The position numbers and the translations under genes are program-made. The notes under the pieces were generated by a model. It worked only from the letters and a program-made list of their open reading frames with translations, was not told the DNA's origin and ran no database searches. A DNA stretch of 64,000 nucleotides from Malacoraja senta. Taxonomy: Eukaryota. Location of the stretch: contig CM075988.1 in the NCBI GenBank assembly GCA_038087875.1, forward strand, positions 1,736,001 through 1,800,000, read 5' to 3'. This document shows positions 14,252-59,475 of this stretch, piece after piece (position 1 is the stretch's first letter; every line of letters starts with the position of its first letter).

Positions 14252-14352
14252 ACCAGTCTGAAGAAGGGTCTCGACCCAAAACGTCACCCATTCCTTCTCT
14301 CCAGAGATGGTTCCTGTCCTGCTGAGTTACTCCGGCATTTTGTGTCTACCTT
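14252..14352 (+). mobile_element. Short PLE terminal-repeat (pLTR) insertion with mutated hammerhead motif
   Basis: CTGAAGAAGGGTCTCGACCCAAAACGTC (GAAA changed to AAAA), followed by the pLTR 3' sequence. Confidence 0.8.
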
Positions 14353-14365
14353 CACTTGAAACCTT

Positions 14366-14648
14366 GTAGTTTTAGTTTAGAGATGCAGCATGGAATCTGA
14401 GTCCACGCCAACTATCGATCACCCATACACTGGTTCTATGTTATCCCACTTTCGCATCCACTCCTACACACTGAAGGCAATTTACAATTAACCTGCAAAG
14501 ATCCATGTCTTTGGGATTATGGGAGGAAACTGAAGCACCCAAAGGAAACCCACGCAATTACAGGGAGAACATGCAAACTCCACACAGACAGCACCTGGGT
14601 CTGTGGTGCTACATGCAGCATCTCTATCAGCTGTTACACTGTGCTACC
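14366..14648 (-). mobile_element. Older HE1-like SINE
   Basis: Tail ttttagtttagagat, core ggaggaaac...aaactccacacagacagcacc. Confidence 0.8.
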
Positions 14649-14889
14649 TTTTCTATCCATGTACCTGTCTGAATTCCTTTTACATGTTAAAATTTTACTA
14701 CCCAGTCACTATTTTTAGCTCAAACCCTCCAATGCCAGTAACATCCTCATGAACTGGGTGATCAGAACAGATGTAACATGATGTCCCAACCCCTGTACTC
14801 ATTGATCTGATCAATAAAGGCAGTCTTCAGTACCCTATCTGTATTATTGCTTTCAGAGACCTCGCTATTGAGGATAACCAGAATGTCGC

Positions 14890-15092
14890 CGAATACTCTC
14901 CTGAATGGTAGAGAGCACATTGACTGCTTGCATCACGGCCTGGTTTGGCAACTCGAACTCCCAGGAATGAAGACTGCAAAAAGTGGTGAACACTACCCAG
15001 TCCATCACGTTCTGACCTCCCCACCATTGAAGGGATTTACAGGAGTCGCTGCCTCTAAAAGGCAGCCAGCATCATCAGAGGCCCACACCACA
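14890..15092 (+). mobile_element. Rex1/Babar LINE 3' fragment
   Basis: Similar to the Rex1 copies at 54900-55730 and 61430-62398. Confidence 0.75.
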
Positions 15093-15294
15093 CTCCTACT
15101 TAGATTTCTTGATGCACATGAAATGATTCTCACACCATCTTTGTCCTGAGCAGAGATGTGGGCTCAGGGATTCACTGAATGAAAGAAAGATCACAGTTGA
15201 GTATTCTTTGTTTTTAAAACCTTTCAAAACTAGGTTTAAATGTCTGTGGACCTAAAGCAGTGCTGTGTGTGACTAGACTATGTAGCACTAAATG

Positions 15295-15742
15295 ATAGAA
15301 ACATAGAAAATAGGTGCAGGAGGAGGCTATTCGGCCCTTCGAGCCAGCACCGCCATTCATTGTGATCATGGCTGATCGTCCCCAATCAATAACCCGTGCC
15401 TGCCTTCTCCCCATATGCCTTGATTCCACTAGCCTCTAGAGCTCTATCTAACTCGCTCTTAAATCCATCCAGTGATTTGGCCTCCATTGCCCTCCGTGGC
15501 AGGGAATTCCACAAATTCACAACTGGGTGAAAACGTTTTTTCTCACCTCAATCTTAAATGGCCTCCCCTTTATTCTAAGACTGTGGCCCCTGGTTCTGGA
15601 CTCGCCCAACATTGGGAACATATTTCCTGCATCTAGCTTGTCCAGTCCTTTTTTTAATTTTATATGTTTCTATAAGATCCGCCCTCATCCTTCTAAACAA
15701 GCCTAGTCTTTTCAATTGCTCCTCATATGACATTCCCGCCAT
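15295..15742 (-). mobile_element. CR1 3' end, split by a nested younger CR1 (continues at 20032-20305)
   Basis: Reading frame ...LIPGM|AGMSYEE joins across the insert; GCCAT duplicated at 15738-15742 and 20032-20036. Confidence 0.9.
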
Positions 15743-18700
15743 AGAAACATAGAAACAGAAAATAAATGCAGGAGTAGGCCATTCGGCCCTTCGAGCCTGC
15801 ACCGCCATTCAATATGATCATGGCTGATCATCCAACTCAGTATCCTGTACCTGCCTTCTCTCCATACCCCCTTATACCTTTAGCCACAAGGGCCACATCT
15901 AACTCCCTCTTAAATATAGCCAATGAACTGGCCTCAACTACCTTCTGTGACAGAGAATTCCACAGATTCACCACTCTCTGTGTGAAAAATGTTTTTCTCA
16001 TCTCGGTCCTAAAAGACTTCCCCCTTATCCTTAAACCGTGACCCCTTGTTCTGGACTTCCCCAACATCGGGAACAATCTTCCTGCATCTAGCCTGTCCAA
16101 TCCCTTAAGAATTTTGTAAGTTTTTATAAGAACCCCCCTCAATCTTCTAAATTCTAGCGAGTACAAGCCGAGTCTATCCAGTCTTTCTTCATATGAAAGT
16201 CCTGCCATCCCAGGAATCAGTCTGGTGAACCTTCTCTGTACTCCCTCTATGGCAAGAATGTCTTTCCTCAGATTAGGAGACCAAAACTGTACGCAATTAT
16301 CCAGGTGTGGTCTCACCAAGGCCCTGTACAACTGCAGCAGAACCGCCCTGCTCCTATACTCAACTCATTTGGCTATGAATGCTAACATACCATTTGCTTT
16401 CTTCACTGCCTGCTGCACCTGCATGCCTACTTTCAATGACTGGTGTACCATGACACCCAGGTCTCGTTGCATCTCCCCTTTTCCTAATCGGCCACCATTC
16501 AGATAATAGTCTACTTTCCTGTTCTTGCCACCAAAATGGATGACCTCATATTTATCCACATTATACTGCATCTGCCATGCATTTTCCCACTCACCCAGCC
16601 TATCCAAGTCACCTTGTAGCCTCCTAGCATCCTCCTCACAACTAACACTGCCTCCCAGCTTCGTGTCATCCGCAAACTTGGAGATGTCGCATTCCATTCC
16701 CTCATCCAAATCATTAATATATATTGTAAATAGCTGGGGTCCCAGCACTGAGCCTTGCGGTGCCCCACTAGTCACTGCATGCCATTCTGAAAAGGACCCG
16801 TTTACTCCTACTCTTTACTTCCTGTCTGCCAGCCAGTTCTCTATCCACATCAATACTGAACCCCCAATACCATGTTCTTTAAGTTTGCATACTAATCTCT
16901 TATGTGGGACGTTGTTGAAAGCCTTCTGAAAGTCCAGATATAACACATCCACTGGTTCTCCCTTATCCATTCTACTAGTTACATCCTCGAAAAATTCTAT
17001 AAGATTCGTCAGACATGATTTAACTTTCGTAAATCCATGCTCACTTTGGCCAATGATTTCACCACTTTCCAAATTTGCTGCTATCCCATCTTTAATAACT
17101 GACTCTAGCATTTTCCCCACTACCGATGTTAGACTAACTGGTCTGTAATTCCACGTTTTCTCTCTCCCTCCCTTTTTAAAAAGTGGGGTTACATTAGCTA
17201 CCCTCCAATCCTCAGGAACTACTCCAGAATCTAAAGAGTTTTGAAAAATTATCACTAATGCATCCACTATTTCTGGGGCTACTTCCTTAAGCTCTCTCGG
17301 ATGCAGCCTATCTGGCCCTGGGGATTTATCGGCCTTTTATCCATTCAATTTACCTAACACCACTTCCCAACTAACCTGAATTTCACTCAGCTCTTCCATC
17401 TCATTTGACCCCCGGTCCCCTGCTATTTCCAGCAAATTATTTATGTCTTCCTTAGTGAAGACAGAACCAAAGTAGTTATTCAATTGGTCTGCCATATCCT
17501 TGTTCCCCATGATCAATTCACCTTTTTCTGACTGCAAGGGACCCACATTTGTTTTAACTAATATTTTTCTCTTCACATATCTATAAAAGCTTTTGCAGTC
17601 AGTTTTTATGTTCCCTGCCAGTTTACTTCCATAATTATTTTCCCTTTCCTAATTAAGCCCTTTGTCCTCCTCTGCTGGACTCTGAATTTCTCCCAGTCCT
17701 CTGGTAGGCTGCTTTTTCTGGCTAATTTGTATGCTTCATCTTTTGTTTTGATACTATCCCTGATTTCCCTTGTTATCCACGGATGCACTACCTTCCCTGA
17801 CTTATTCTTTTGCCAAATTGGGATGAACAACTGTTGTAGTTCTTCCATGCGGTCTTTAAATGCCTTCCATTGCATATCCCCCGTCAACCCTTTAAGAATC
17901 AATTGCCAGTCTATCTTGGCCAATTCACGTCTCATACCCTCAATGTTACCTTTCTTTAAGTTCAGAACCCTTGTTTCTGAATTAACTATGTCACTCTCCA
18001 TCCTAATGAAGAACTCAACCATATTATGGTCACTCTGGCCCAAGGGGCCACGCACAACAAGACTGCTAACTAACCCTTCCTCATTACTCAATACCCAGTC
18101 TAGAATAGCCTGCTCTCTCGTTGGTTCCTCTATATGTTGGTTTAGAAAACTATCCCGCATACATTCCAAGAAATCCCCTTCCTCAGCACCCCTGCCAATT
18201 TGATTCACCCAATCTATATGTAGATTGAAGTCACCCATTATAACTGTTTTACCTTTGTTGCACGCGTTTCTAATTTCCTGTTTGATGCCATCCCCAACTC
18301 CACTACTATTGTTAGGTGGCCCCCCACTAGCGTTTTCTGCCCCTTAGTGTTCCGCAGCTCTACCCATATCGATTCCACATCCTCCAAGCTAATGTCCTTC
18401 CTTTCTATTGCGTTAATCTCCTCTCTAACCAGCAATGCTACCCCACCTCCTTTTCCTTTCTGTCTATTCCTCCTGAATATTGAATATCCCTGGATGTTCA
18501 GCTCCCAGCCTTGGTCACCCTGGAGCCATGTCTCCGTGATCCCAACTATATCATATTCATTAATAACTATCTGCACATTCAACTCATCCACCTTATTACG
18601 AATGCTCCTTGCATTGAGACACAAAGCCTTCAGGTTTGTTTTTACAACCCTTATACAATTATGTTGAAAAGTGGCCCTTTTTGATTTTTGCCCTGGATTT

Positions 18701-18800
18701 GTCTGCCTGCCACTTTTACTTTTCACCTTGCTACCTATTGCTTCTACCCTCATTTTACACCCCTCTGTCTCTCTGCTCATGCTCCCATCCCCTTGCCACA

Positions 18801-19748
18801 TTAGTTTAAATCCTCCCCGACAGCACTAGCAAACACTTCCCCAAGGACATTGGTTCCATTCCAGCCCAGGTGCAGACCGTCCTGTTTGTACTGGTCCCAC
18901 CTCCCCCAGAACTGGTTCCAATGCCCTAGAAATTTGAATCCCTCCCCCTTGCACCATTTTTCAAGCCACGTATTCATCTGAAATATCTTCCTATTTCTAC
19001 TCTGACTAGCACGTGGCACTGGTAGTAATCCAGAAATTATTACCTTTGAGGTCCTGCTTTTAAGTTTATCTCCTAGCTCCCTAAATTCACCTTGTAGGAC
19101 CTCATCCCGTTTTTTACCTATATCGTTGGTGCCAATGTGCACCACGACAACTGGCTGTTCACCCTCCCCCTCCAGAATGTTCTGCAGCCGTTCAGTGACA
19201 TCCCTGACCCTTGCACCAGGGAGGCAACATACCATCCTGGAGTCTTGTTTGCGGCCGCAGAACCGCCTATCTATTCCCCTTACAATGGAATCCCCTATTA
19301 CTATAGCCCTACCACTCTTTTTCCTCCCCTCCTGTGCCACAGAGCCACCCATGGTGCCATGAACTTGGCTGCTGCTGCCTTCCCCTGATGAGCCATCTCC
19401 CCCAACAGTATCCAAAATGGTATATCTGTTTAGGAGGGAGATGACCGCAAGGGACTCCTGCACTACCTGCCTACTGCTACGCTGGCTAATGGCCACCCGT
19501 TCCCTTTCTGTCCGCTTACCTTTTACCTGCGGTGTGACCAACTCACTGTACGTGCTATTCACGACTTTCTCAGCATCGTGGATGCTCCAGTATGAATCCA
19601 ACCGCAGCTCCAATCGTTCAAAGCGGTCTGCCAGGAGCTGCAGCTGGACACACTTCCTGCAAACGTAGTCACCAGGGACACCGACCATATCCCTGATCTC
19701 CCACATGTTGCAGGATGAGCAAACCATGGGGCCGATCGCAACTGACAT
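18801..19748 (-). CDS. CR1 ORF1 protein (zinc finger/leucine zipper + SGNH esterase), 315 aa, uninterrupted
   Basis: CSSC...CRKC followed by leucine heptads; IVIGDSIVRG, VVVHIGTND, DGLHL. Confidence 0.9.
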   Translation of the reverse strand: MSVAIGPMVCSSCNMWEIRDMVGVPGDYVCRKCVQLQLLADRFERLELRLDSYWSIHDAEKVVNSTYSELVTPQVKGKRTERERVAISQRSSRQVVQESLAVISLLNRYTILDTVGGDGSSGEGSSSQVHGTMGGSVAQEGRKKSGRAIVIGDSIVRGIDRRFCGRKQDSRMVCCLPGARVRDVTERLQNILEGEGEQPVVVVHIGTNDIGKKRDEVLQGEFRELGDKLKSRTSKVIISGLLPVPRASQSRNRKIFQMNTWLEKWCKGEGFKFLGHWNQFWGRWDQYKQDGLHLGWNGTNVLGEVFASAVGEDLN

Positions 19749-19831
19749 AGCTTGCCCCCAAATTAAATCAACTCCCTCACACTATAAAAATCTTAATCCT
19801 TTAAACTGTACCTTTACTAAAAAGCACTGTC

Positions 19832-20305: not shown

Positions 20306-20455
20306 ACATCTTATTACGTACGTTAAACCTCATGCTCTGCACGCCTGTAACTGGGAGAGATCAAAGTACGTCGAGGACATCAATTACATGTGGCAAATCT
20401 GCAAAACTATTTTTCACATTTTTATCTTGCTTCACCAGAGAAGATAGTTTGAGAG

Positions 20456-20985
20456 AAGATAGACATAAAAATCTGGAGTAACCCAGCGGGTCAGACAGCA
20501 TCTCTGGAGAAAAGGAATAGGTGACATTTAGGATTGAGACCCTTCTTCAGACAGAGTCAGGGGAAAGGGAAACAAGAGATATAGACGGTGATGGTAGCGA
20601 GATAGAGAACAAATTAATGAAAGATGTACAAAAAAGTAACAATGATCAAGGAAACAGTCCATTGTTGGCTGTGGGCTAGAGAACACGTTATACAATGAAA
20701 CTCAACAGGATGACAGTGAGGGAGGGACGGTGAGAGAGAGAGAAGATGCAAAGGTTACCTGAAGTTAGAGAAATCAATATTCATATTGCTGGGTTGGAAG
20801 CTTGAAAAGCAAAATATGAGATGCTGTTCCTCCTATTTGCATTTGGCCTCACTCTGACAGTGGAGGAGGCCTAGGACAGAAAGGTCAGTGTGGGAATGGG
20901 GAAGGGAGTTAAAGTGTTTAGCAACCGGGAGATCACATAGGCCCAGGTGGACTGAGCGAGGGTGTTCAGTGAAACGATCGCCCAC
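20456..20985 (-). mobile_element. Penelope-like element 3' end (GIY-YIG, 3'UTR, pLTR with degenerate hammerhead)
   Basis: RRVGDRFTEHPRSV...LPVAKHFNS..HSHTDLSVLGLLHC, then CTGAAGAAGGGTCTCAATCCTAAATGTC at ~20550-20523. Confidence 0.9.
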
Positions 20986-21206
20986 TCTTCGCGAGGTGTC
21001 TTGAGAAAAGCCCATTTGAAAGTGAATAGTACTCAACCATAAAGTACACCATGTCACGGGCCAGCTGGGAGCAACCTGAAGTCAGCAACACATCTCGTGA
21101 CACAAGTCAAAGGGCAGGAGTTGACATCAACACAATCACCACAGTCGGTGGGGAATGGTGTAGAGACGTTCACAGCTGCAACCCCACTCTACAATGAGTA
21201 CACCAG

Positions 21207-21393
21207 GAGCTGCAGATGCTAGAATCTTGAACAAAACATAAAGTGCTGGAGGAACTCAGCAGGTCAGTCAGCATCTCTGGAGTGAATGGATATGTGATGT
21301 TTCGGGTTAGGGACTTTCTTCAGACTGGGAGAGTCTATTCCCTCCACAGATGCTACCTGACCAACTGAGTTCCTCCAGCACTGTGTTTTGCTC
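21207..21393. mobile_element. Fold-back element made of two inverted PLE pLTR halves
   Basis: gtgctggaggaactcag...gcatct / agatgct...ctgagttcctccagcac; degenerate hammerhead on - in the left arm. Confidence 0.75.
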
Positions 21394-21435
21394 ATAGCTG
21401 TAGTACGAGACTGTGAAAGGCTTTCTATAAATGTA

Positions 21436-22707: not shown

Positions 22708-22833
22708 GCAGAATAAGGGGATATTTCATTGAAGTTGAGAGATGGAGAATGGGTATTTCAATTTAGTCCCAAACTGCAGATAAACTTTAATTCAAATTCC
22801 TCTCCTGGGTGGTATTCTAAGCAGTTACAAGCT

Positions 22834-22993
22834 GCTACAGTTTGCACAAATGAGCATTCACAGTCAGAAGAAAGATCTCGACCCGAAACGTCACCCATTC
22901 CTTCTCTCCAGAGATGCTGCCTGTCCTGCTGAGTTACTCCAGCATTTTGTGTCTATCTTTGATTTAAACCAGCATCTGCAGTTCTTTCGTACA
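22834..22993 (+). mobile_element. Short PLE pLTR insertion in the putative TMEM45B 3'UTR (antisense)
   Basis: Degenerate hammerhead CAGAAGAAAGATCTCGACCCGAAACGTC plus pLTR and tail; 12-bp TSD CAGTTACAAGCT (22822-22833 / 22994-23005). Confidence 0.82.
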
Positions 22994-23431
22994 CAGTTAC
23001 AAGCTTTATATTTCATCCAGAAAGTTACTGAGGCAAGTAGATTGTCAGATGCAAGAAAAAGATTTCTGCGCTCTACATTCTGATACCAGTTTCAGTGGTG
23101 AGATTATTCCTTAGTTTGCATCATGAAGAAAAGAGCCGCTCTTATTCAGAACCTGCCAGTTTGCTGCTCTAGTCTGGTCGAGACTTGCTGCCTGCCGTGA
23201 AGTCTGTGGGGGACAATCCCATGATGGATCCCCATCACCAGAGCTATTTCACAACAGGCACGCACCCCAGCCCCCCATTCCCACTCCACAGTACAACCAG
23301 TGAATCAATGTCATTCAAGGAACAAGCTACATTTTAAAAGTTCACAATTCAGAAAATTGAAACAAAAATCATCGACTTCTGAACGTGACGGGTGGATGTG
23401 CAGGAGCCGCTGGTCAATCAAGGTCTGCACG

Positions 23432-26103: not shown

Positions 26104-27108
<1,005 letters not shown>

Positions 27109-27343
27109 CGGCTCCATCAAACCGTGAAACTGAAGAATAACCTCTGTACCAATCAGAGACACTTCCTAAACTCCATTCACATCCACTGGCTGTCCATTGA
27201 ATTCCACAGGTACCGCCTGCTAAACTAAACACACTCACTGTGACCGTGTAGACTTAGTGACCGTGTAGACTTACAGTGAGCCTGTAGACTAAACCTATTC
27301 ACTGACCACTGCTACCCCTACACCAGAAGCTGGACATTGATGG

Positions 27344-27448
27344 ACACAAGGTGCTGGAGTAACTCAGCAGGTCAGGCAGCATCTGTGGAGAACATGGAAA
27401 CTGTCACCAATCAATGTTCTCCAGAGATGCTGCCTGACCTTCTGAGTT
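27344..27448. mobile_element. Fold-back pLTR palindrome
   Basis: aactcagcaggtcaggcagcatctgtggagaacat / atgttctccagagatgctgcctgaccttctgagtt; centre holds gaaactgtcacc, a remnant of the cleavage site. Confidence 0.8.
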
Positions 27449-27526
27449 GCACCTGCATTGTGTATCGCTTTGTGCATTAGCCAGCACCTGCAGTGCCTTG
27501 TGTCTGGGGCTCACCACTGATGGTCA

Positions 27527-27787
<261 letters not shown>

Positions 27788-27789
27788 TC

Positions 27790-28288
27790 ACTCACATTTA
27801 AACCTTTATATTTCACACCTCTTCTCTCCTTATCTGACCTCCCTTTTGCAATTGCTCCACCCATCTGTCAATCATCACCCTCTGTTGTCTCCATCTATCC
27901 CTTGCCAGGATAGACACAAAAAGCTGGAGTAACTCAGCGGGACAGACAGCATCTCTGGAGAGCAGGAATGGGTGACATTTCCGGACGAGACCCTTCTTCA
28001 GACTGAAGAAGATGCAGCCTGTCCCGCTGAGTTACTCCAGCTTTTGGTGTCCATCTTCGGTTTAAACCAGCATCTGCAGTTCCTTCCTACACGTATCACT
28101 TGCCAGGCTTTGTTCCACCCTAAATTCCCTTTTCCAGCTTCCTCCCCCTCCTCCATCAGTCTGAAGACGGGTCCCGACCCCAAAATATTGTCTGTCAACT
28201 CATCCACAGATGCTGCCTGAGCTGCTGAGTTACTCCAGCACTTTGTATTTTCCTCGCAATTCCAGCATCTACAGTTCCCTGCGTCTCC
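27790..28288. mobile_element. Old PLE 3'UTR/pLTR with a nested fold-back pLTR pair (27909-28092)
   Basis: Degenerate hammerheads at ~28002-27974 (-) and ~28161-28190 (+); tcacttgccagg/tcccttgccagg flank the nested piece. Confidence 0.75.
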
Positions 28289-35392: not shown

Positions 35393-37768
35393 ATGGTCTC
35401 CAGCAAAAAAAAAAGATTCCTTCCTTCACTTTGCAGTATTTTGAAGGGACTATATCTCCAGTGATAACCTGCTTCATTCCTCATCCCAACAAACACAAGT
35501 TATTCACACAATACCTACCCCAACAAGCAGAGAAGATACAACAACTATTGCTTTACCTTCTCACCTAGCACCATGCAAGGCGGAACAGCAATTACTATAC
35601 ACTGTACATTGGAATGGATCATAACGCACAGCATAGGCCCCTCAGCTCACAGTACAGATGTACAATAATCTCCCAATGCAACTGGTGCAACAATCAGTGC
35701 CACCCATTCTACAGTGGGAGGCCCAATGGTCATCAGGGGACTGATTTTGGAAACAACGTCCCTTCATCTCACATATGAACCTTACCTCCTCTTACCTGTC
35801 ACGTGAATTCTCCATTCCTACTCAGTCCTCTCTGTGCTCAGCTTCTGGTCATTGCAGGCATTATATTTATCACATCTAATACCACTTGATACAGATATTA
35901 GATTACAGGACACAAGAAGCAGAAGTCGGAATGGGGCAATTGCCATTCAAGTCTATCCCTGACCTCGGTTTCTCTTTCCTGTATAAATTCTTCTTTTCCC
36001 CTAAGATTTCTAACTGTGTTGCTCTGGATATTTGTCTTGACTATGCTCTGCATCTGTGCCCCCAGAGCTCGTGGCTTGGGAATTACAAAAGTTCATAACA
36101 CGTAAGATGCTAACGTTTCTTCTCATCTGTGTCCTGGCTATCCAACTTCTTATTTCAAGACTGTGACCCCTAGCATTATGAACACAAAGTCAATGTCAAA
36201 TAATGAAACTACATCTCCTATTTCTGTCTTAAAGCTGCCCGTTATTCTGCACCAACTCCTTTACCTTAGGTTTTCATCCTGCGCTCTCAATATTGTCGTG
36301 TGATCTTTCCTTTCCTCCACACTCTCACAGACTCTCCCTCTTATTCCTGTCTGCCTGCATGAATGTAAGAGCACAGGAAGATGTGGTGGCCAGTTACCCC
36401 CCCTTCCACCATCACAGATCTTTTACCCGAGCACCATTTTCCCCACTAACACCGTCGCCTGATTCCCTCAATATAAATAACCTTTCAATGCCTTGAATAT
36501 GTTCAGCAACTTGAGTTTCACATGGCTGAAAATTCCAAAGATTTGTCATCCTCTAGTGTATCTGGTGGAAAATATTTGTCTTTAATTGTCCTGAATGGCC
36601 AACCCCTTATTTTGAGTGTGATCCATGGAACAATGCAGCCCATATAGGGGAGATATCATAAAGTGATACATAGAGTCATACAGCGTGGAAACAGATCCTT
36701 CGGCCCAACTAGCACAATCTTTGCATCCATCGTGTCAAGCCCCTTAAGAACTTTGTTTCCCTTATGTTTCTAACCAGATAGGAGGCCATTCAGCCCATCA
36801 AATCTATTCTGCTTCTCAGAACAATCCTACCACTCCCATTTCCTCCTTGATTTCACTTTAACCTATTCTCTCACATACCATTAACTCCTTCATCTCCAAT
36901 TCTCCTGTATACACTGAGGCATTTCACCTACCGCCCAACCTGTCTTGTTGGGATGTGATGAGAAACTGAAGCACCCGAGGAAAGCACATGCAGTGTTGTG
37001 CAGAATGTGCAAACTCCACATAGACAGCTGCAGATTAAGCCGGGGTTGCGGAAGATGTGAAGCAGCAGCACCACTACCTGCTGCGCCACTGTGTATGCTT
37101 CGATGAGTCTACTGAGAGCCATAGAGTTATACAACATGGAAAAAGGCTCTTTGGTTCAACTGGTTCATGCCACCAAGGTGCTTACCCGAGTTAGACCCAT
37201 TGCCCATAACCCTCTCAACCCCTTCTACCCATGTACCTGTCCAAATGTCCTTTAAATGTTGTTATTGTGCCTGCCTCTGCCTCTTTCTGTGGCATCTCGC
37301 TGCAGATGCTGACCACCCTGTGTGTGAAAACATCGCTCGGCAGGTCCCCTTTAAATCTTTCCCATCTCTCCTTAAAACCTTGCCCCCTACCCTGGGAAAA
37401 AGCCAGTGACTTTGTCTTTGCTCCTCTAAGCAGCCCTCTCTTAAATACATGTCAACCGTACACACTCCAAAGGAAAAAAGCCTTTGCCTATCCAGTTATA
37501 ACAACTTGCCCCCAGTCCCAGTTTCACCTTGTGAATCTTTTCTGCACCTATTCGAGGCTTCTTATAGCTAAATGACCAGAACAGCACACAATATTTCAAG
37601 TGTGGTATCACAAACAATCTGGTCAATTTTAACATTAGTCCCCATTTCTTGTTCTCAGTACATTAACTGATAAAGGCAAGCATGCTAAACACCTTCTTCA
37701 CCATTGTCTAAATATGTCACCACTTTCAGGGATCTATGTATTTGTACTGTGTATGTATCTATGTATTT

Positions 37769-37852
37769 GTCTGAAGAAGGGTCTCGACCCGAAACGTTGC
37801 CTATTTCCTTCGCTCCATAGATGTTGCCTCACCCGCTGAGTTTCTCTCGCAT
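37769..37852 (+). ncRNA. Hammerhead ribozyme motif (intact core, weak stem I) in a short pLTR insertion
   Basis: CUGAAGA-A-GGGU(CUCG)ACCC-GAAA-CG-UU at 37771-37798; stem I only ~2 bp because the insertion starts at the core. Confidence 0.6.
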
Positions 37853-38399
37853 GTATTTGTACCGCTCAGACTCACTGTTCCACTCTCCATTGCCTTGCCT
37901 TTTACTGTGGTCCTTGGGTTACTTTTCCAGATGATCTAGATCCTGTTGTAATCTTATAAATCCTTGTTCACTGTCCACTATACTGCCAGTTTTGGTGGCA
38001 TCCGCAAACATATCAATCATGCCAACTACATTTTCATGCAAATCGTTAATATAGTTGACGAACAACGGTGGACCCATCACTGATCTGTGCAGTAGACCAT
38101 TGGTCCAGGCCTCTAATCTGAAAAACAACTCACCAATTCTTACCACCAAGCCAATTTTGTATCCCGTTCGTGAGCTCATACTGCATGACCTGTGATCTAA
38201 CCTTCCAGACAATCCCAATCACGTGGGACCTGTCAAAGACCTTGCTCGTCCACCTGGACAATGCCCACCATCTTGCCTTCATCAATCTTCTTGCTCGTCT
38301 TTTCAAAAAATTCAATCAAATTTGTGAGACAGACTGACTATTCCTAATGTCCTTCCCTTTCCAAATGATCCTGTTTCTCAGAATCATCTTACCCACCAC

Positions 38400-40325: not shown

Positions 40326-40812
40326 TGTTTGGTTTAGTTTAGAGATACAGCAGGGAAACAAACTCTTCAGTCCACACCGCCCATCAATCACTCGTCCACA
40401 TTAGTTCTGAGTTATCCCACATTCTTATCCACTTCCGACATACTAGAGGCAATTTACAGAGGCCAATTAACCAACAAACCCGCACGTCTTTGGGATGTGG
40501 GAGGAAACTGGGGAACCTGGTAGAATCCCACGCAGTCACAAGGAGAAGTTACAAACTCCACACAGACAGCACCCGAGGTCAGAATCGAACCTGGGTCTCT
40601 GTCACCATGAGGCAACAACTCTACCTGCTGGTAGACACAAAATGCTGACGTAACTCAGCAGGTCAGGCAGCATCTCTGGAGAGAAGGTAAGATTCCTTCT
40701 CTCCAGAGATGCTGCCTAACCCACTGAGTTACTCCAGCATTTTGTGTTTACCTTTGATTTAAACCAGCATCTGCAGTTCTTTCCTACACAACTCCACCTC
40801 CTGTGCCACTGT
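40326..40812 (-). mobile_element. HE1 SINE interrupted by a fold-back pLTR element (40631-40788)
   Basis: SINE tail/core; insert flanked by imperfect 15-bp TSD caactctacctgctg / caactccacctcctg. Confidence 0.85.
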
Positions 40813-41037: not shown

Positions 41038-42215
41038 TGTAAACATAATTTTCTTACATTAACATTTGAGTTTTACTTTTAGAAGCTGTGATATTATTAA
41101 TTAGCATAAAATAATGTGCATGTCACGCCTGCATAATTTCAATAAATAAACACTTTGTTCACCACTTTCTGAATACAAATAATCCTTAAAGTTTTGAGTT
41201 GTGCACTTTTCTATCTACCTAAATTTTGTTTTCAACCTGGAATATTTATATTTTTGTATCTTTAGGTGCGTCTCTTTAGTTAGTTTATATTGCATAGTTC
41301 CCTCACAGCCTCTCCCTGACTTTATTGATTTATTGACATATTTCTCAATGTTGGATGAACTTTGTCCCCAGCCTGGGTCTGCCCATCCTGGTTTATCATT
41401 GTTCTGTTTTAAATGAACAGGTGAGGGTACAGCGTTCCAATATCATGGAAGGCATAATTTACGATTGCTAATGATGGTGGTGCAGCCATTAGTGCTGCTG
41501 TCTCACAGGGATAGAGGCTTGGTTTATTCAGCATGCAAACATGCTGTTCGGCCCATCGAGTCCATTCCGGCCATGATGCTTATCTACACTCATTCCATTA
41601 GTCTACGTTAGAGCTGTAACCTTCTGTTTCTTTCCTATTCAAGTAACTGCCCCAACTCCTTTCAAATGCTGTAATTATATCTGCCTTTACCACTTCCCCA
41701 GGCAGCTTGTTTCATATCGTCCCATTCAATATTGTTCCATCTCAGGATTGATCTGAGCACGAGAATTGTCTGTGTGAATTTGTATATTCTCTCTACATAT
41801 TCTCTCTGTCGCTGCACAGGCTTCTTCCAGGTACTCCAGTATTCCCCCACATCCCATACACATACTGGTAAATTAAATAGTTATCTTAAATTAGCTCAGT
41901 GTACATTAATGGCAAATAAGTATGAAAGGGACGTTGATGGGAATGTTGGAGAGAATAAATTGCTTGGATACAGGGGGGTTGGGATTAATGTGATTTCTCC
42001 CCTGAGGGCCAGTATGGACCCAATAGACACAATGGCCTCATTCTGCATCGTTATACGAGTTTTTCATTATCTATAGTGGTGACATTACCTTGAAAGGTCT
42101 CTGCACCCTCATTCAATGTTATCTATTCTCTGCTACAAATAACAATCAATGCTAAACGATCACACATAATCCAGTCTGTTAAAACAACAGGAGTAAACCT
42201 GTTCCTACTACTATA

Positions 42216-42315
42216 GCGGGTCTGAAGAAGGGTTTCGGCCCGAAACGTTGCCTGTTTCATTCGCTCCATAGATGCTGCTGCACCCGCTGAGTTTCTCCAG
42301 CATTTTTGTGTACCT
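42216..42315 (+). mobile_element. ~100-bp PLE-derived mini-element
   Basis: pLTR sequence only; imperfect 12-bp TSD CCTACTA(C/T)TATA at 42204-42215 and 42316-42327. Confidence 0.85.
42217..42254 (+). ncRNA. Minimal type I hammerhead ribozyme motif, best-preserved copy
   Basis: Stem I CGGGU/GCCUG (two G-U pairs); core CUGAAGA (42222-42228) plus extra A; stem II GGGU-UUCG-GCCC; GAAA (42242-42245); palindromic ACGU stem III; predicted cleavage after GUU (42249). Confidence 0.75.
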
Positions 42316-43084
42316 CCTACTATTATATGCTGCCTGGATTAGAGAACATTAGCTCCAAGGAGAGTTTTGACAAACTTGGATTGTTTCTTCCTGAAGGTAG
42401 AGGTGCAACCTGATAAAGGTATATACAATTATGAGAGGTAGACAGAATCTTTTCCCCTGGGTGGAAATGTCAAAGATTAGAGGAAATAGCTTTAAAGTGA
42501 GAGGGGCGAGGGTTAAAGGAGTTGGGTGGCGCAATTGTTTTCCACACAGGAATGCGCTGCTCGGGGTGGTGTTAGAGGCCATAGTCGTGGTGTTTTAGAG
42601 GTATTTTGATAAGCACCTGGATATGAAGGGAATGGAGGGGTTTGGATCACGTGTAGGCAGAGAAGATGACTTTATCTTGGCATTTTACGTTCAGCACGGA
42701 CAATGTTAGTGAACGAGCCTGTTCCGTGATGTATCCAGTCCACCTGTATCCAGGCGGAGATCACCTTTGGGGCTTTGAACCCTGCCCCACCTCACAAACA
42801 TTCCTCAATATCAACAACCTGAATCCTTAGAAAAGCTTCTCAAGTTAGAAAAGAGATTGTTTTTTTTTTACAAAATAATTATTTGCCCTGGTATATTTTA
42901 TTTACCCTCAAACAAAAATCATTCTAAACACACAAGTCGTTGTTATGTTTACACTCAGGCACTCTTCCTCGTTCTTGTCTCAGCTCTATTACTGGACTGC
43001 AGCTTATGGTGAATTGTTTTCTTTAATATCATTTTCATGAGTTCTTGTTTTCAGATACAAACCCCAATAAGATGTAGTTATGAA

Positions 43085-43200: not shown

Positions 43201-43407
43201 CTTCCGTGGAATGCCTGCTCCTTCTGATTTGCTAATTGCCTCAAAAGCCTTGAGATCTCCCCGAGTTTCACAACAGGTGCAAATATTCCAGCGTACTCTT
43301 GTCTCCCTGAGGAAAGGCAACCTGCCACTCCCTGGTCTTGGCTACTAGAACACTGCCACCCATGGGCCTGGACTGGTATAGCAGCACCCAGACATTTAAA
43401 TCATTAC

Positions 43408-43498
43408 GGAGGTACACAAAAATGCTGGAGAAACTCAGCGGGTGCAGCAGCATCTATGGAGGGAAGGAAATAGGTAACGTTTCGGGCCGAAACCCTTC
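43408..43498 (-). mobile_element. 91-bp PLE-derived mini-element, 5'-truncated inside the hammerhead core
   Basis: Perfect 13-bp TSD TTTAAATCATTAC (43395-43407 / 43499-43511); on -: GAAGGGTTTCGGCCCGAAACGTTACC. Confidence 0.88.
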
Positions 43499-44169
43499 TT
43501 TAAATCATTACACTCATTTCCTCAACTTCTCATCATATTTGTTTGCCACGCTGTGTGATGAAATTCTTCCTGGTGTTTTTTAAAATGTTACATTCATAAT
43601 ATGGTCTAAGTTTATTGCCATAAGCACAGGTACACTCGGCCACAGCCACAATGCAAATCTCATCAAATCTAGAAAAATAGGTAGCTATTTAGCACACAAA
43701 ACAGCAATAAAGAGTCTGCTGGAGGAACTCAGCGAGTCAATCAGCACCTGTGGGGAGAAAGGAAAGGTCAACATTTTGGAGTTGTTGGCTTGCAGCCCTC
43801 TGTTCGCCTTGCTGTTCAATAAGATCGTGAATGACCCCATCCTCTGCGTCAACTCTATTTTCCGGCCTGAAACCAGAATTCTCAATTCTCAATAGATCTA
43901 AAATAACCTGTCTATCTCGGTCCTTGAATGTGTTTAGTATTTCAGCCGCTGCAACTTGCTGGGGTTCCAAAGGTTTACATTCTTGCGAACAAAACCATGC
44001 TGATCTCCAATTTAAATGGCTGATGATTCATCACTAATTGTAAAACTTTATTCCTTCGTACACGTATATAGTCTCCTTTCATTACAAGCAGAAGGGGACC
44101 ATTAGGCTCACTGAACACTGCCGGCTCTCTTAACTGTTCATCAATCCCATTCACCCCGATTTTTGCTGC

Positions 44170-48989: not shown

Positions 48990-49296
48990 ACATGACCCTC
49001 TCTCTGTCCCTCCCCCACCCTAGTTCTCCAACTAATTTCACTGTCCTCCTGATTAATTTTACTGTGTGTATGCCTCATTGTCACCTTCCTCTCAGCCACC
49101 AATGAACCATTCTACATTTCCTTGATTATTGTCTGCTTTGATCTGAGGTTTTCACACCTTGCCCTTCCATATCTCTCACTTCCCTCACCCCTGACTCTCG
49201 GTCTGAAGAAGGGTCTCCACCTGAAACTTCAGCCATTCCTTCTCTGCAAAGATGCTGCCTGTCCCGCTGAGTTACTCCAGCATTTTGCAACTATCT
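48990..49296 (+). mobile_element. PLE 3'UTR/pLTR with degenerate hammerhead
   Basis: Reverse-complement match to 50277-50580; CTGAAGAAGGGTCTCCACCTGAAACTTC at 49203-49230. Confidence 0.8.
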
Positions 49297-50265: not shown

Positions 50266-50276
50266 AGAAATTTTAA

Positions 50277-51330
50277 AGATAGACACAAATTGCCGGTGTA
50301 ACTCAGTGGGACAGGCAGCATCTCTGGAGAGAAGGAATGGGTGATGTTTCGGGTCGAGACCCTTCTTTAGACTGATGTCAGGGGAGAGGGAGATACATAG
50401 ATAGAAGTGTAAGGTGTGAAAACAGGACAAAGGGAATGGAGATCAAGGAAAATGTAGAATAGGTCATTGTTAGCTGGGAGAAGGTAACAAAGTAAACAGA
50501 GGTAAAATGTAGGCGAGACAATAAGACTGGTCGGAGAACAGGGAAGGGGGATGGATGGAGAGCGAGGGAAAGCAAGGGTTACTTGAAGTTAGAGGTCAAC
50601 GTTCATACCACTGGGGTGTAAGCTGCCCAAGCGAAATATGAGGTGCTGTTCCTCCAATTTACACTGGGCCTCACTCTGACAATGGAGGAGGCGCAGGACA
50701 GAAAGGTCAGTGTGGAAATGGGAGGGGGAGTTAAAGAGTTTAGCAACCGGGAGATCAGGTAGGTTTATGTGGACTGAGCGGGGGTGTTCAGCAACATGAT
50801 CGCCGACCTTGCGCTTGATCTCGGCGAATTATAAGAGTCACAACTGGAACAGCGGATACAGTAGATGAGATTGGAGGAGGTTCAAGTGAACCTCTGCCTC
50901 ATCTGAAAAGACTGTTGAGGTCCTTGGACGGAGTCGAGGGGGGGGGGGTGTAAGGACAGGTGATGCATCTCCTGCAATTGCAGGGGAAAGTACCTGGGGA
51001 GGGGGTGGTTTGGGTGGGAAGGGACGAGTTGACCAGGGATTTGCGGAGGAAACCATTTCTGCAGAAAGGGGTGGAGATGGGAAAATGTGGCTACGGGTGA
51101 GATCCCATTGGAGGTGGCGACAATGTCGGAGGATTATGTGTTGCATGTGACGGCTGATGGGGTGGAAGGTGAGGACTAGGGGGACTGGGGGGAGGGGGAG
51201 TGAATTTGAGTGCAGGATGAAAATTAATAGTAAAGTTAATGAAGTCAGTGAGTTCTGCATAGGTACAGGAGGCAGCACTGATGCATTTGTCAATGTAGCA
51301 GAGGTACAGTTCGGGGACAGGGCCAGTGTA
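50277..51330 (-). mobile_element. Penelope-like element 3' part (RT end, GIY-YIG, pLTR)
   Basis: YTGPVPELYLCYIDKCI...FHPALKFT; PLVLTFHP; GIY-YIG region ending LEEQHLIFRLGSL; mutated hammerhead at ~50370-50343. Confidence 0.92.
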
Positions 51331-53521
51331 TGCTTGGACCTGCTACCTGCCCCCTCGACGTTGTCCCCTCTGCCCTTCTGAAGGATGTCATTACAATAGC
51401 TGGTCCCAGCATCCTCGCCATCATCAACAGTTCTCTGGCCACTGGCACTGTTCCTACCTGCTTCAAGCATGCGGTGGTCCAGCCCCTCTTGAAAAAACCT
51501 AACCTCGACCCCACCTTGCCTAGCAACTACAGACATATTTTCCAAACTGCCTTTCCTTTCAAAAGTCCTTGAAAAGGAAATTTTAAGTCAACTTATACCT
51601 TACCTTCACCAAAACACCATCCTGGAAACTTTCCAATCAGATTTCAGGGTTCACCACAGCACAGAGTCTGCCTTGTTGAAGGTACACAATGACCTACTGC
51701 TCACCGTTGACTCCGGCGACTGTGCAATTCTGCTCCTTCTTGACCTCAGCGCAGCGTTTGATACAGTCGACCACACCATCCTAATTGACCGTCTCCGGTA
51801 TGGGGTTGGTATTGATGGCACTGCCCTGAGCTGGTTCGTCTCCTACCTCAAAGATAGGAGTTTCTCTACAAAGATAGGCAACTCTTTCTCCTCCCCAGCT
51901 AGCCTCTGCTGTGGGGTTCCACAAGGTTCCATCCTTGGCCCCATTCTCTTCTCCCTGTATATGCTCCCCTTAGGCCAAGTCATTCAAAGGCACGGCATTT
52001 CCTTCCACTGCTATGCAGACGATACACAACTCTATCTCCCCCTGAAGCCCAACAACTGATCTAATCTATTCAGCCTTATCCACTGCGTCGAGGATATAAA
52101 GTGTTGGATGGCCCAGAACCTCCTCCAACTAAACGAGAGTAAGTCTGAGGTCATCCTACTCAGACTCAATCAAAACAATAGCAGGCAGCCTTGGAAGCCT
52201 AAAGGGCCTGTCCCACCAGCATGCGACTGCATGTGACTAGCACGACCTAATGTGGTCGCTTGAGCCGTACGGCCTCGCGGGTCGGTCCCACTTCGATCAC
52301 CGGAGCCGTATGGAGTTGCGCGGTGCTGGTCCCGACATCGCGCGGGGCTCCAAAAAACTGAAACTGTCCAAAAATTCCGCGCAGCAACGGCCTGTCGGCC
52401 CACAGCTGCATTGAGGCCATACGCAGTGTCTTGACACCGTACGCAGCGACTTGACGGAATACGCCTAGCGCGTGGCATTGCACGATGACATCACCGCCCG
52501 GCGTGCCGTTGCGTGATGACGTAACCGCCCGACGCGGTGCGACGTCCAAATTCAGTCGGCCTGCCTCCTGACCAGCTGATTGGTGAGTATGATGTCGGGA
52601 CCAGCCCCGCACAACTCCAGACGGCTCCGCGGTTGGAAGTGGGACCGGCCCTGCGAGGCCGTACGCCTCAAGCCACCACGTTTGGTCGCACTAGACGCAT
52701 GCAATCGCATGCTGGTGGGACAGGCCCTTTAGCCCATTACTCAAACCTCCCGTCAAAAACCTTGGCGTGATATTTGACTCCGCGTTGAAATTTGACAAAC
52801 AAGTCAATGCCGTGGTAAAAGCTAACTTCTTCCAGCTTCGGACGACAGCTAAAATAAAACAATTCCTCCAATCTGACGACGTCGAAAAGATCACCCACTC
52901 ATTTATCTTCTCCCGCCTAGATTACTGCAACTCCCTTTACACTGACATCAGCCAATCATCCCTGTCTCGCCTGCAACTGGTCCAAAACGCCGCAGCGAGA
53001 CTCCTGACGGGCACCCGAAAAAGGGACCACATCACCCCGATTCTGGTCTCTCTCCACTGGCTCCCTGTGCGGTTCCGAATCAATTTCAAGCTCCTTCTTT
53101 ATGTATACAAACCCTTAATGGGCTTGCCCCCACCTACATCAAAAATCTGCTTACCCACCACACCACTTCCAGGTCCCTCAGATCGTGCGACTTGGGGTTA
53201 CTGACCATCCAGCGGTCTAGGCATAAGCTCAGAGGCGACCGTGCTTTTGCGGTTGCAGCTCCTAGACTATGGAACAGCATTCCTCTTCCCATCAGAACTG
53301 CCCCCTCCATCGACTCTTTTAAGTCTAGACTTAAAACTTATTTCTACTCTCAAGCCTTTCTTGAGGTCATCTGAGGGAGTGCTGTATGTATGTATTTATG
53401 TATGTATTGTTGATCTATGTACCACTGTTTGTAGCACGTTAGTACCTGCACCAATGTAAAGCACTTTGGTCAACAATGAGTTGTTTTTAAATGTGCTATA
53501 GAAATAAAATGTACTTGACTT
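51331..53521 (+). mobile_element. L2 LINE (5'-truncated RT and 3' end) inserted in the PLE
   Basis: [60 protein letters not shown]; tail tacttgactt. Confidence 0.95.
52203..52728. mobile_element. PIF/Harbinger-type MITE (526 bp) inside the L2
   Basis: TIR AGGGCCTGTCCCACCAGCATGCGA / TCGCATGCTGGTGGGACAGGCCCT; TAA/TTA flanks; CpG-rich. Confidence 0.92.
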
Positions 53522-54540: not shown

Positions 54541-54551
54541 TTTCAAGGAAT

Positions 54552-54785: not shown

Positions 54786-54899
54786 AGAATCCATTCGGCC
54801 CACAACATCCATACTAGCCCTCTGGGAACCAGTCCCTTTGGCCCACAACACCCATACTAGCGCTCCATAAAGCCCCCCACCCCCCACCCCCCACCCCGT

Positions 54900-56226: not shown

Positions 56227-56227
56227 C

Positions 56228-56700
56228 TGTTGCCAGGGCAGTTCTGTTTGTGGATTTTAGGGAGAAGATAAAACCGGGCTGTGCAGTGCTGGGGAACGAT
56301 AAGGTTGGAGGCTTTTGAGAGCAGAGAGCCGGAAGTAATAAAATCAGAAATGGTGTGTGAAAGATCTGGTGCTCATCCGTGGGATCATGGTCCAACGATA
56401 GGTAGGAGGAGATGTCTGAGAGTTGTCACCTGGCCTCAGCCCAGTAGAGGTCAGCTCACCAGACTACCATGGAACCTCCCTTGTCGGCGGGTGTGATTAT
56501 AATGTTGGGGTTGCTGCAGAGTGAGCGGAGGGCTGTACGTTCAGAGGGGGAGAGGTTTGAGTAGGTAAGGGGAGTGAAAAGTTGAGACGGTTGATGTTAC
56601 GCCAGGAGTTAGAAATAAAAAGGTCTAAAGAGGGTAGAGCGTCGTCTGGGGGGAGGAGGAGGAGGAGGACTGGTGTGGGAGGGGGAGAGTTGTGGATATA
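56228..56700 (-). mobile_element. Penelope-like RT, 5' part
   Basis: On -: IVPQHCTARFYLLPKIHKQNCPG. Confidence 0.82.
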
Positions 56701-57250
56701 GCCCAATCTATCACACAGATCAGGCTCCCCACCATTAACTCCATCTCCACTTCACACTGCCTCAGGAAAACAGCAAACAGCAAGACTTTTCCCAACCTGG
56801 TCATTCCTTCTTCTCCCTGCTCCCTTTGTGAAATAGATACAGAAGCTTGAAAGAATGCACCACCAGACTCTTGCCCTCTCTTATCGGGCGTCTGAACATT
56901 CCTTCCATAACCAATTTTCCTCTGCCATATTGCAGACATTGGGATTTGTCCCTGGAACTATGACGAATGCTGAGAACTATATTCTGCACCCTGCATCTTT
57001 TCCTTCGCTCTACCTATTATACTTGAGTTTAGCTTGATTATATTTATGTGTTACATTTTCTGATGATTGGACAGCATGCAAAACATAATTTTTTGATGTT
57101 CCTCTGTGCGCATGACTGTAATAAACCTAAATCTGCTCAATTTCCCAACCAATGAAGGCATGTATACAATATGCTTCTTTACCACTGTCAACTTTAGTTG
57201 CCACTTTCATAGACTTAGATCCCTCTGTACATCCATGTTCTTGCTATGAA

Positions 57251-57564
57251 TGGCCCTGTCCCACGGTACGAGTTCATTCCAAGAGCTCTCGCAATTTTGC
57301 CCTGATTCGAATGGCTGCTCATCGGTACTCGGGGCTCTCGTGGACATTTTTCAACATGTTGAAAAATCTTCACGAGTCTTCCCGAGCTTACCTGCCGTTA
57401 GCGAGTCTTCCCGAGTACCTGCCGTTAGCGTTATGAGCCGCTAAGAGACATTCCCGAAATCCGACGTACCCGCTACGTTCATTCTCCGTGCTTACCATGA
57501 TTTTGATTTTTTTTTTAAACTCGGGAGAGCTCTTGGAATGAACTCGTACCATGGGACAGGGCCA
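57251..57564. mobile_element. PIF/Harbinger-type MITE (314 bp)
   Basis: 40-bp TIR TGGCCCTGTCCCA(C/T)GGTACGAGTTCATTCCAAGAGCTCTC; GAA/TAA flanks. Confidence 0.92.
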
Positions 57565-57946
57565 TAACATGTCTTACATTCGACCCTCCAAAGTGCAACA
57601 CTTGTTCAGTTTAAACTCCTTCTGCCATTTCTGTAGCTCATCCTTATCCCGCTGAGTACTTTGACATCCTTCCTTGCTGTCTGCAAATTCCACCAATTTT
57701 GGTGTCCTCTGCAAACTTACTAACCAATCCATCTACATTTACAACTTAGTCATCGGTATATATCGCAAACGGCAGAGGTCCCAGCATAGACCCCTGCGGA
57801 ACTCTGCTGATCAGAGACCTCCAACCAGTGTAACATTCTTCCACCACAAGGCTCTCTCTTCGATCGGTAAACCCGTTCTAATTCCAAATGACAACGTCAC
57901 CGTGGACCCCATACATTTTAATCTTCTGGATCAGCCTATCATAAAG

Positions 57947-58592
57947 GATTGGCCTTTATAAATCAGAGCATTGAGTATAGAAGTTGGGATGTAATGTTAA
58001 AATTGTACAAGGCACTGGTGAGGCCAATTCTGGAATATAGTGTACAATTCTGGTCACCAAATTATAGGAAAGATGTCCACAAAATAGAGAGAGTACAGAG
58101 GAGATTTACTAAAATGTTGCCTGGGTTTCAGCACCTAAGTTACAGAGAAAGGTTGAACAAGTTAGGTCTTTATTCTTTGGAGCGCAGAAGGTTAAGGGGG
58201 GACTTGATAGAGGTCTTTTAAATTATGAGAGGGATAGACAGAGTTGACGTTGACAGAGATAAGCTTTTTCCATTGAGAGTAGGGAAGATTCAAACAAGAG
58301 GACATGATTTGAGAATGAAGGGACAAAAGTTTAGGGGCAACATGAGGGGGAACTTCTTTACTCAGAGAGTGGTAGCTGTGTGGAATGAGCTTCCAGTGGA
58401 AGTGGTGAAGGCAGGTTCGTTTTTATCATTTAAAAATAAATTGGATAGGTATATGGATGGGAAAGGAATGGAGGGTTATGGTCTGAGTGCAGGTAGATGG
58501 GACTAGGTGAGAGTAAGTGTTCGGCACAGACTAGAAGGGCTGAGATGGCCTGTTTCCATGCTGTAATTGTTATATGGTTATATGGTTATATG
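57947..58592 (+). mobile_element. CR1 3' end with (TATGGTTA)n tail, nested in an older - strand CR1 (~57140-58750)
   Basis: AFINQSIEYRSWDV...LVRPILEYSVQFWSP...GRWD*. Confidence 0.92.
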
Positions 58593-58789
58593 GACTTTAT
58601 CAAATGACTTACTAAATCCATGTAAATAACACTGACTGCCGTTAAGATCAGTGATCACCATCACCTACTCTTAAAAAACAATCACGTTTGTGAGACATGA
58701 CCTGCTGAGTACAAAGCCATGCTGATATAATCTCTAATTACCCATTTTCTACCAAATGAGAGTAATCCTATCCAATTTACAACCCCTTT

Positions 58790-59475
58790 GGTTGCAAGGT
58801 TCACTTACCTTGTCATCCTTATCGTTCCCCACACACTGGAACATGCAGTCCTTATCACTGATCAGCTAGCCTTCATACAACTTAACATGATAGCTTACAT
58901 TCTGCTTGGGAAGTTTACAACTCGATTTGTGTAAACATAGAATTCTCCAATTTCAGGTAATGTTCCCCCTTCCTGCTCTCTTTTCTCTGTGCGACCCCTC
59001 CCCCCCCGCCCCCACCACTTCCCCACCTCCATGTGCACCTCTTTCTCCAACCTCCTAGTCACCATGCTCCTTACCCTGCCTTCCTACACTTATGGATGCC
59101 AGAGTCCGCCATTTCCCTATTATATGCCTTTTTTCCCCTTCCACCAATAGAACTCCAGCTTTCACTCCTCCTCCTCTCTCCTTATCCAACACCCTTTGTC
59201 TACTTTTCATCTCTAGCCTTTGTCACTTACTCCACCCATCTTGCCAGTCAATACCTCCCCTCACCTGTATTCACCTTTCAATTGCCAAGCTTTGCCTCAC
59301 CTCCACCATTCTTTTCTAGCTTTCTATCCCTCATTACAATTAGTCTGAAGAAGGGTCCTGGCATAAGACTTTGTCTGTCCATGTCCTCCACAGATGCTGC
59401 CTGACCCACCGAGTTCCACCAGCACATTGTGTTTTGCTTAAGACCTGAGCAAGTTCAAACACCTGCAGTTCCGTG
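58790..59475 (+). mobile_element. Old PLE 3' end with degenerate hammerhead
   Basis: Pyrimidine-rich 3'UTR; CTGAAGAAGGGTCC at 59345; pLTR ccacagatgctgcctgacc. Confidence 0.7.

Follow-up and report, generated by a model that had tools for sequence, protein, structure and literature searches.

What are the short repeats with a hammerhead-ribozyme motif that recur through a stretch of the genome of Malacoraja senta, and how were they made? The stretch (the window) comprises 64,000 nucleotides of GenBank assembly GCA_038087875.1, contig CM075988.1, positions 1,736,001 to 1,800,000 of the forward strand. A sequence-only reading had rightly recognized the repeat as the terminal repeat of a Penelope-like element, with a hammerhead motif of the minimal type I form, and had proposed that the repeat also spreads as a separate family resembling short interspersed nuclear elements (SINEs). 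The second proposal is not supported, as the same ~100 bp forms the 3′ end of young copies encoding a reverse transcriptase (RT) and a GIY-YIG endonuclease. We consider it likely that the inserts of ~100 and ~135 bp, referred to here as stubs, are dead-end run-off copies of the 5′ end of the element's uncut RNA, because their 5′ ends pile up at the upstream edge of the ribozyme and their 3′ ends at two sites.

Ends of the insertions

Positions are counted from the first core base (C3 = 0), which places the predicted cut after +27. Ends were read in the first 100 exact matches to the young (UUCG-loop) subfamily on contig C1, all within its first 9 Mb, against a reference reaching to −134; as the selecting pattern lies 3′ of +52, the sample is blind to the 5′ ends. 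Of these, 46 fall at −6 to +7, 22 at +8 to +52, 6 at −7 to −127 and 26 at −128 or beyond, and the rate per base at the edge is ~66 times that of the 121 bases above it. The 3′ ends are concentrated at +92 to +95 (64 copies) and +123 to +133 (31 copies), with five elsewhere; the two sites are ~37 nt apart, and the difference between them is the tail. Target-site duplications (TSDs) measure 12–17 bp in copies overall; among 74 short copies examined, 53 had a repeat of at least 10 bp, and in 35 of these it was 14–16 bp long. Genome-wide, 8,056 copies keep the upstream untranslated region (UTR) while 7,747 break off at −7 to −2, about a sixth of the latter being, by eye, long copies of sister subfamilies. 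The CUCG subfamily shows the same pile-up, with 11 of 30 5′ ends at −7 to +7.

Inserts also occur as head-to-head pairs, and in 41 of 42 pairs drawn from all loci the ~37-nt tail is present on exactly one arm (two of the 42 are segmental duplicates of others), from which we infer that one RT start site is used per nicked strand. Short duplications of the first core bases recur at the 5′ joint (L182, L201, L244, L249 and others), a pattern that renewed priming by the run-off cDNA, a few bases inside the RNA, would give. The AG that immediately precedes the motif was considered as a splice site and rejected as a source of the edge, since starts at −3 to −6 include the AG and share no common upstream exon.

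The closest experimental parallel is the anole Poseidon element PAc, for which two internal RT starts that define the tail, nicking and extension of both strands, and uncut RNA as the main template were shown in vitro (Frangieh et al. 2024, PMC11167929). Unlike PAc, the element described here has a Neptune-type cysteine linker and an open reading frame (ORF) that begins at ~+163, after the tail. No strand difference in start site is reported for PAc, whereas here each arm of a paired insert has its own site in 41 of 42 cases. The parts of that report drawn on here describe no run-off stubs, and they state that no reads ending at the cut site were found.

The parent element

Walking upstream from young motif copies leads into RT and GIY-YIG sequence that is 93–98% alike between copies. 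In partial tandems (pseudo-long terminal repeats, pLTRs; L153, L163, L164, L169) the motif and tail are followed by the ORF from ~+163, and two whole motif-to-motif units measure 3,945 and 4,046 bp, both frameshifted. The RT motifs and GIY-YIG share one frame across 595 amino acids in L073, while no intact full-length ORF was found among the copies examined. The Pfam GIY-YIG match on the element protein (E 7e-4, 20.2 bits) is below the 22.6 cut-off; homologues of the protein carry PF00078 and PF01541. A C-x4-C-x2-C linker precedes the GIY-YIG domain, which has a CCHH motif. The closest named homologues come from sharks and rays (62–73% identity), with named invertebrate homologues at ~50%, which points to a cartilaginous-fish host.

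With its ORF of RT and C-terminal GIY-YIG/CCHH, pLTRs, optional tail and inverted 5′ copy, this is an endonuclease-bearing Penelope-like element. A C-terminal GIY-YIG with CCHH and a CX2-5CXXC linker is the published layout of the Neptune clade, the linker being common to Nematis (PMC8557442). We take the repeat to be the terminal repeat of a ~4-kb Penelope-like retrotransposon that is, by its protein layout, putatively of Neptune type. The CCHH GIY-YIG, the linker, the partial tandems, the inverted 5′ copy and a 30–40-bp tail at one end are all as described for Neptune (PMC8557442); the present element has a long N-terminal region with proline-rich repeats and a unit of ~4 kb.

The hammerhead motif and its abundance

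The minimal hammerhead motif is defined by the absence of helix III, a palindromic 15.2–16.2 pair, an extra base after A9, and G10.1–C11.1 (Cervera and de la Pena 2014, PMC4209133). The family has the core bases, the extra base between 9 and 10.1, G10.1–C11.1, the palindromic 15.2–16.2 pair without helix III, and a cleavable UH. As every point of that published definition is present, the 4-nt palindrome, which the sequence-only reading had listed as unusual, is the norm and indeed a defining trait. The same source describes most copies of the minimal motif as solo, probably from truncated elements, and opposite-strand pairs, as in this family. Helix II has 4 bp here and helix I 2 bp next to the core, against 7–8 and 4–5 bp in Schistosoma, though a 2-bp helix I is also reported for D. 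virilis (PMC4209133). Sharks and rays are not named in the abstract, results or discussion of that paper.

An exact core pattern gave 56,799 matches in the 1.94-Gb genome and none for the reversed control. A minimal-hammerhead descriptor gave 23 matches in 579 kb (58 evenly spaced genome stretches of our choosing) and none in each of 10 dinucleotide shuffles, so the recurrence of the motif is not due to chance. Descriptor matches extrapolate to ~77,000 genome-wide and all family segments to ~700,000, counting both arms of pairs; the young UUCG subfamily alone has 20,483 exact 40-mer matches. The family was thus rightly described as high-copy, with at least 56,799 exact cores against ~4,000 copies in coelacanth and ~9,000 in X. 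tropicalis, numbers obtained with differing descriptors (PMC4209133).

Conservation of the core above its flanks, offered earlier as a check on the motif, is seen across seven subfamily consensuses, where none of 11 core bases varies against 16 of 52 downstream positions, at borderline significance (Fisher p 0.052). Loop II varies at all four positions, and the helices differ only by one-sided changes from U-A to U·G. A covariation check on 19 copies, also suggested earlier, gave no two-sided change and no excess over shuffles. Rfam hammerhead models have no match in the window, returning only hairpin look-alikes from head-to-head pairs. Predicted folds of the monomer do not form the hammerhead, a stable fold of the stub was rejected because it was not above shuffles, and stem II can pair with GAAAC as an alternative hairpin. 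The anole ribozyme cuts only with protein present and is inactive without it (PMC11167929), and one of nine Xenopus dimers cut in vitro (10.64898/2026.07.22.740005). The predicted ribozyme probably cuts rarely, only as a dimer or with the help of protein, and solo stubs are probably inert.

Where the RNA starts

Only 383 genome copies include the ORF leader past the tail. A copy with the ORF leader must have been copied from the full type of RNA, and 14 of 51 such copies (single loci among the first 100 places listed) start at −9 to +1. Many leader-bearing copies are partial tandems: one unit ends at +166 to +283, and the next begins at the edge. Of 26 such jump junctions, 13 land at −6 to +7, mostly at −4/−3, so that untrimmed RT jumps show a sharp edge at that position. 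At five junctions (L393, L410, L418, L422, L429) a run of A longer than the template follows +280 to +283, which suggests either short A-tailed RNA or untemplated addition by RT. Bases −4 and −3 are invariant in the seven subfamily consensuses though unpaired in helix I, and they lie in what we take to be an initiator-like motif. An internal initiator–downstream promoter element (DPE) promoter is described for the D. virilis Penelope (PMC2377424), and an initiator-like motif for a rotifer pLTR (PMC3846280). In RNA reads of two related organisms these edges also appear as loose ends. Reads on ORF and UTR parts (L259:1050-1700) favor one strand in two of the three runs taken from relatives.

Several observations weigh against a start at the edge. 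The RNA reads of the two relatives show no pile-up of read starts there. A cap-derived, untemplated G was rejected for direct insertions, which by eye show no excess of it; a G does precede six of the 10 jump junctions at −4/−3 (by eye), which is only suggestive. The other 13 of the 26 jump junctions land away from the edge, mostly at −35 to −337, so not all RNAs start at the edge. Short and long copies differ mildly at two variants (p 0.08 and 0.17), the 100-copy sample represents the first 9 Mb of one contig, and the edge sequence is nearly palindromic, which could favor joints.

Probable run-off copying and its alternatives

In the run-off model that we prefer, transcription would start at about −4/−3, in the initiator-like motif. 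The element's endonuclease would nick both target strands and RT would prime at two internal start sites, one per strand; an RT starting near the 5′ end of the RNA would run off at that end, ~100 or ~135 nt on, and the resulting cDNA would be inserted. Longer copies would arise when RT primes in the 3′ repeat or when the short cDNA is transferred there, and rare re-entry of RT at +166 to +283, or circular RNA, would give small arrays.

Among the alternatives, a SINE-like non-autonomous family, in which stubs are transcribed from their own initiator-type promoter and remobilized by the Penelope-like protein, survives best, and we regard it as unlikely. Every stub has the two RT start sites, and most retain, besides the initiator-like edge, a loose match to what we take to be a downstream-promoter-like sequence, all of which counts for such a family. 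Stub sequence is abundant in the RNA reads of relatives, but in 86–96% of those reads the match gives way to unlike sequence, the pattern to be expected if stubs travel within host transcripts. A variant C at +34 is present in six of 52 edge copies and in none of 26 long ones (p 0.17), yet none of three markers differs significantly between short and long copies (p 0.08, 0.17 and 1.0; 100 copies), and the tail is equally frequent in both (17/54 and 8/27). Non-autonomous hammerhead repeats derived from pLTRs have been argued to exist, including in one cartilaginous fish (10.64898/2026.07.22.740005). Of the extra 5′ segments listed here, lying between TSD and stub, nearly all come from the element itself or from the local flank, and not from the flank of a parent stub (one was not recovered); most are either the element's antisense or local flank; the short insert L222, for example, carries the ORF leader antisense and L200 part of the RT region antisense. 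No tRNA, 5S or 7SL match was found in the window with Rfam at E up to 5. A by-product of the element is therefore favored over a separate SINE, and some stubs may still be transcribed on their own.

We consider it very unlikely that the 5′ pile-up reflects stalling of RT, or a hot spot of microhomology, at the ribozyme edge on a longer RNA rather than the end of the RNA. The nearly palindromic edge, the alternative hairpin of stem II with GAAAC, and 2–3-base microhomology at many joints would each fit, but the stops lie on the far side of the motif, after RT has crossed all of it, the edge region folds no better than shuffles (z 0.73, 1.49 and −0.06), and end-to-end jumps onto A-tailed ends start from the same −4/−3.

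It is slightly less likely again that ribozyme cleavage and circularization, as proposed by Cervera and de la Pena, are the main copy route and stubs derive from cut RNA. The units of arrays L424 and L427 do start at +28, the first base past the predicted cut, without the core, and apparent starts number 258 at +28 against 135 at +24 and 74 at +36, a modest excess. Against this, the core upstream of the cut is complete in most stubs, counts in ten-base windows are not raised (1,161 at +24 to +33 against 1,018 at +14 to +23), and a two-letter position, internal deletions and hairpin joints all inflate the count at +28.

Possible cleavage footprints and arrays

As ten-base counts show no excess of starts around the predicted cut, most templates were uncut. 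A hint of a large class of stubs from cut RNA (seven of 100 starts at +28 to +32) was not borne out by those counts, and the starts at +28 fit a side route that accounts for about 1% of copies rather than the main route.

Eight arrays (L421 to L427 and L409) contain 3–13 copies of 138–384-bp units made of the motif region and the ORF leader, with three intact hammerhead cores each in L421 and L425, nine in L423 and 13 in L426. Almost no private changes set their units apart from the family consensus, compared with 0.6% in single copies; the exception is L409, the units of which have each drifted separately. Most arrays end at an RT start site, and by eye TSDs flank L421, L422, L423 and L426. 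These features fit single insertions from circles or from repeated jumps, and later expansion is also possible; L422 is not a circle, since its two junctions differ. The +28 starts of L424 and L427, on which no TSD was seen, represent two of 13 non-edge junctions (p 0.002), or two of 15 with two later finds. A third junction of leader to +28, L443, has a TSD and came from a search selected for +28. These very few cases are suggestive of rare cleavage and ligation behind the +28 junctions. No circle-type joint occurs among the joints listed from RNA reads, which come from other organisms and from poly(A) or cDNA libraries.

Animal non-LTR retrozymes likewise consist of short units in tandem, each with one type I hammerhead, and have a relationship with the pLTRs of Penelope-like elements (PMC7229834; 10.64898/2026.07.22.740005). 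Tandem hammerhead units of this kind are absent from the solo copies of the window and present in a few arrays elsewhere. Retrozymes with a mean unit of 363 bp are reported for one cartilaginous fish (Li et al. 2026, 10.64898/2026.07.22.740005). The arrays described here differ from them, as far as those sources were drawn on, in being few, in having the minimal motif, in including the ORF leader, in matching the consensus and in ending at RT start sites. Because they are consensus-like, bear the leader and end at RT start sites, they look newly born from the element's own RNA, whereas the preprint proposes local amplification after insertion.

Copies in the window

A self-search of the window found all 12 sites of the sequence-only reading to be copies of one repeat, and 21 segments match the terminal repeat in total. 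The parts identified are:

42203..42327, + strand: young stub of the UUCG-loop type; insert 42216-42314; TSD of 13 bp with one mismatch; no tail, its end lying at the first RT start site
42222..42249, + strand: intact minimal hammerhead motif, predicted cut after 42249
37761..37860, + strand: stub, motif 37771-37798 intact; ends marked by a direct repeat of 10 bp; unusually short at the 3′ end
22822..23005, + strand: CUCG-loop stub with tail, 12-bp TSD; ~29 extra bases on the 5′ side; core mutated
43395..43511, − strand: young stub starting inside the core, first core bases missing; 13-bp TSD
27896..28107, both strands: head-to-head pair, only one arm tailed; TSD of 14 bp with one mismatch
40615..40799, both strands: head-to-head pair lacking the ribozyme core, one arm tailed; TSD of 12 bp with one mismatch
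50276..51338, − strand: 5′-truncated Penelope-like copy with RT thumb, linker, broken GIY-YIG, 3′ UTR and motif 50370
20455..21018, − strand: 5′-truncated copy with broken GIY-YIG end, 3′ UTR and motif 20550
21191..21396, both strands: older head-to-head pair, motif 21323 (−)
14251..14354, + strand: stub, motif 14258 with one core change; no TSD found
49118..49296, + strand: copy with part of the 3′ UTR, motif 49203
28108..28278, + strand: older-subfamily copy, short 3′ UTR, motif 28161, decayed core
58894..59484, + strand: older-subfamily copy, remnant of the endonuclease end and 3′ UTR, motif 59345, decayed core
27324..27499, both strands: older head-to-head pair without core
5515..5603, both strands: short head-to-head pair without core
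43717..43779, − strand: decayed fragment of the terminal repeat

A copy was called fully intact if it had the 11 core bases, a 4-bp stem II, the CG palindrome and a 2-bp helix I. Checked position by position, only 37771 and 42222 of the 12 sites qualify, the same two for which an intact core had been reported. The core is kept, with stem II or the palindrome broken, at 21323, 28001 and 49203, carries substitutions at 14258, 20550, 22865, 28161, 50370 and 59345, and lacks its first bases in the copy at 43498. The 12–13-bp TSDs noted for the inserts at 22834, 42216 and 43408 are real, at 22822-22833/22994-23005 (12 bp, flanking a 160-bp insert), 42203-42215/42315-42327 (13 bp, one mismatch) and 43395-43407/43499-43511 (13 bp); the head-to-head pairs 27896-28107 and 40615-40799 are TSD-flanked as well. 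The motifs at 20550 and 50370 had been said to follow a GIY-YIG ORF: the context is real, the remnants (20761-21018, 57% identity to a genome copy, and 50592-51170, 45% identical to a genome copy) being broken and ~200 nt of 3′ UTR intervening. Density is not peculiar to the window, at 0.33 segments/kb against 0.36/kb in the genome sample.

A further hammerhead-like match at 14073 (−) belongs to an old dispersed repeat and was dismissed as chance, because six other copies of that repeat do not keep the core. The interval 13950-14130 has a 100% identical copy ~156 kb away on the opposite strand (G000:C12:1594076-1594256), which reflects either recent duplication or duplication in the assembly. 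A DUF716 (TMEM45-family) gene has exons on the minus strand at 26119-26262 and within 27413-27727, separated by an intron with a G+C-rich minisatellite (unit ~18 bp, ~26275-27110); the two intact plus-strand motifs would be antisense to this gene if it reaches that far. Remnants of long interspersed nuclear elements (LINEs) with endonuclease and RT occupy 9473-12105 (+), 15837-19781 (−) and 4850-5533 (−), and two LINE pieces encode a GDSL esterase-type ORF1 domain. Penelope-like RT/endonuclease remnants without an adjoining terminal repeat, all on the minus strand, are found at 12593-12870, 33405-35378, 53520-53750 and 56232-56668. Positions 3950-4149 are an assembly gap of 200 N.

What the footprints mean

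Earlier publications cover the motif, its solo copies, the tails, the inverted pairs and hammerhead repeats derived from pLTRs, the last also for one cartilaginous fish. As the motif and its solo copies were known, the value of this locus lies in the end footprints and not in the oddities first claimed for it. Neither the sharp 5′ edge in an initiator-like motif, nor the restriction of the tail to one arm of a pair, nor the arrays joined from the leader were found in the literature searched, which left aside Repbase, Dfam and the supplements of PMC4209133 and 10.64898/2026.07.22.740005. Tentatively, and with more doubt than confidence, we propose a wider reading in which the ribozyme, sitting at the transcription start, would double as core promoter; copying would pass through a strong-stop cDNA like that of retroviruses, several hundred thousand stubs being failed strand transfers; and the ribozyme would cut in the animal, the cut RNAs being ligated into circles and copied repeatedly, so that the 138–384-bp arrays would be nascent retrozymes, with the cut site itself as the joint in two of them.

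With tens of thousands of young insertions, the ends are a natural read-out of the copying reaction, and they predict exact positions: an RNA start near −4, RT starts at +92 and +129, a cut at +27/+28 and re-entry at +166 to +283. These footprints bear on the role of the ribozyme in the animal, the rebuilding of the terminal repeat and the origin of animal retrozymes. The ends of the stubs likely record where the element's RNA starts and where its copying starts, and so give testable clues to how the element moves.

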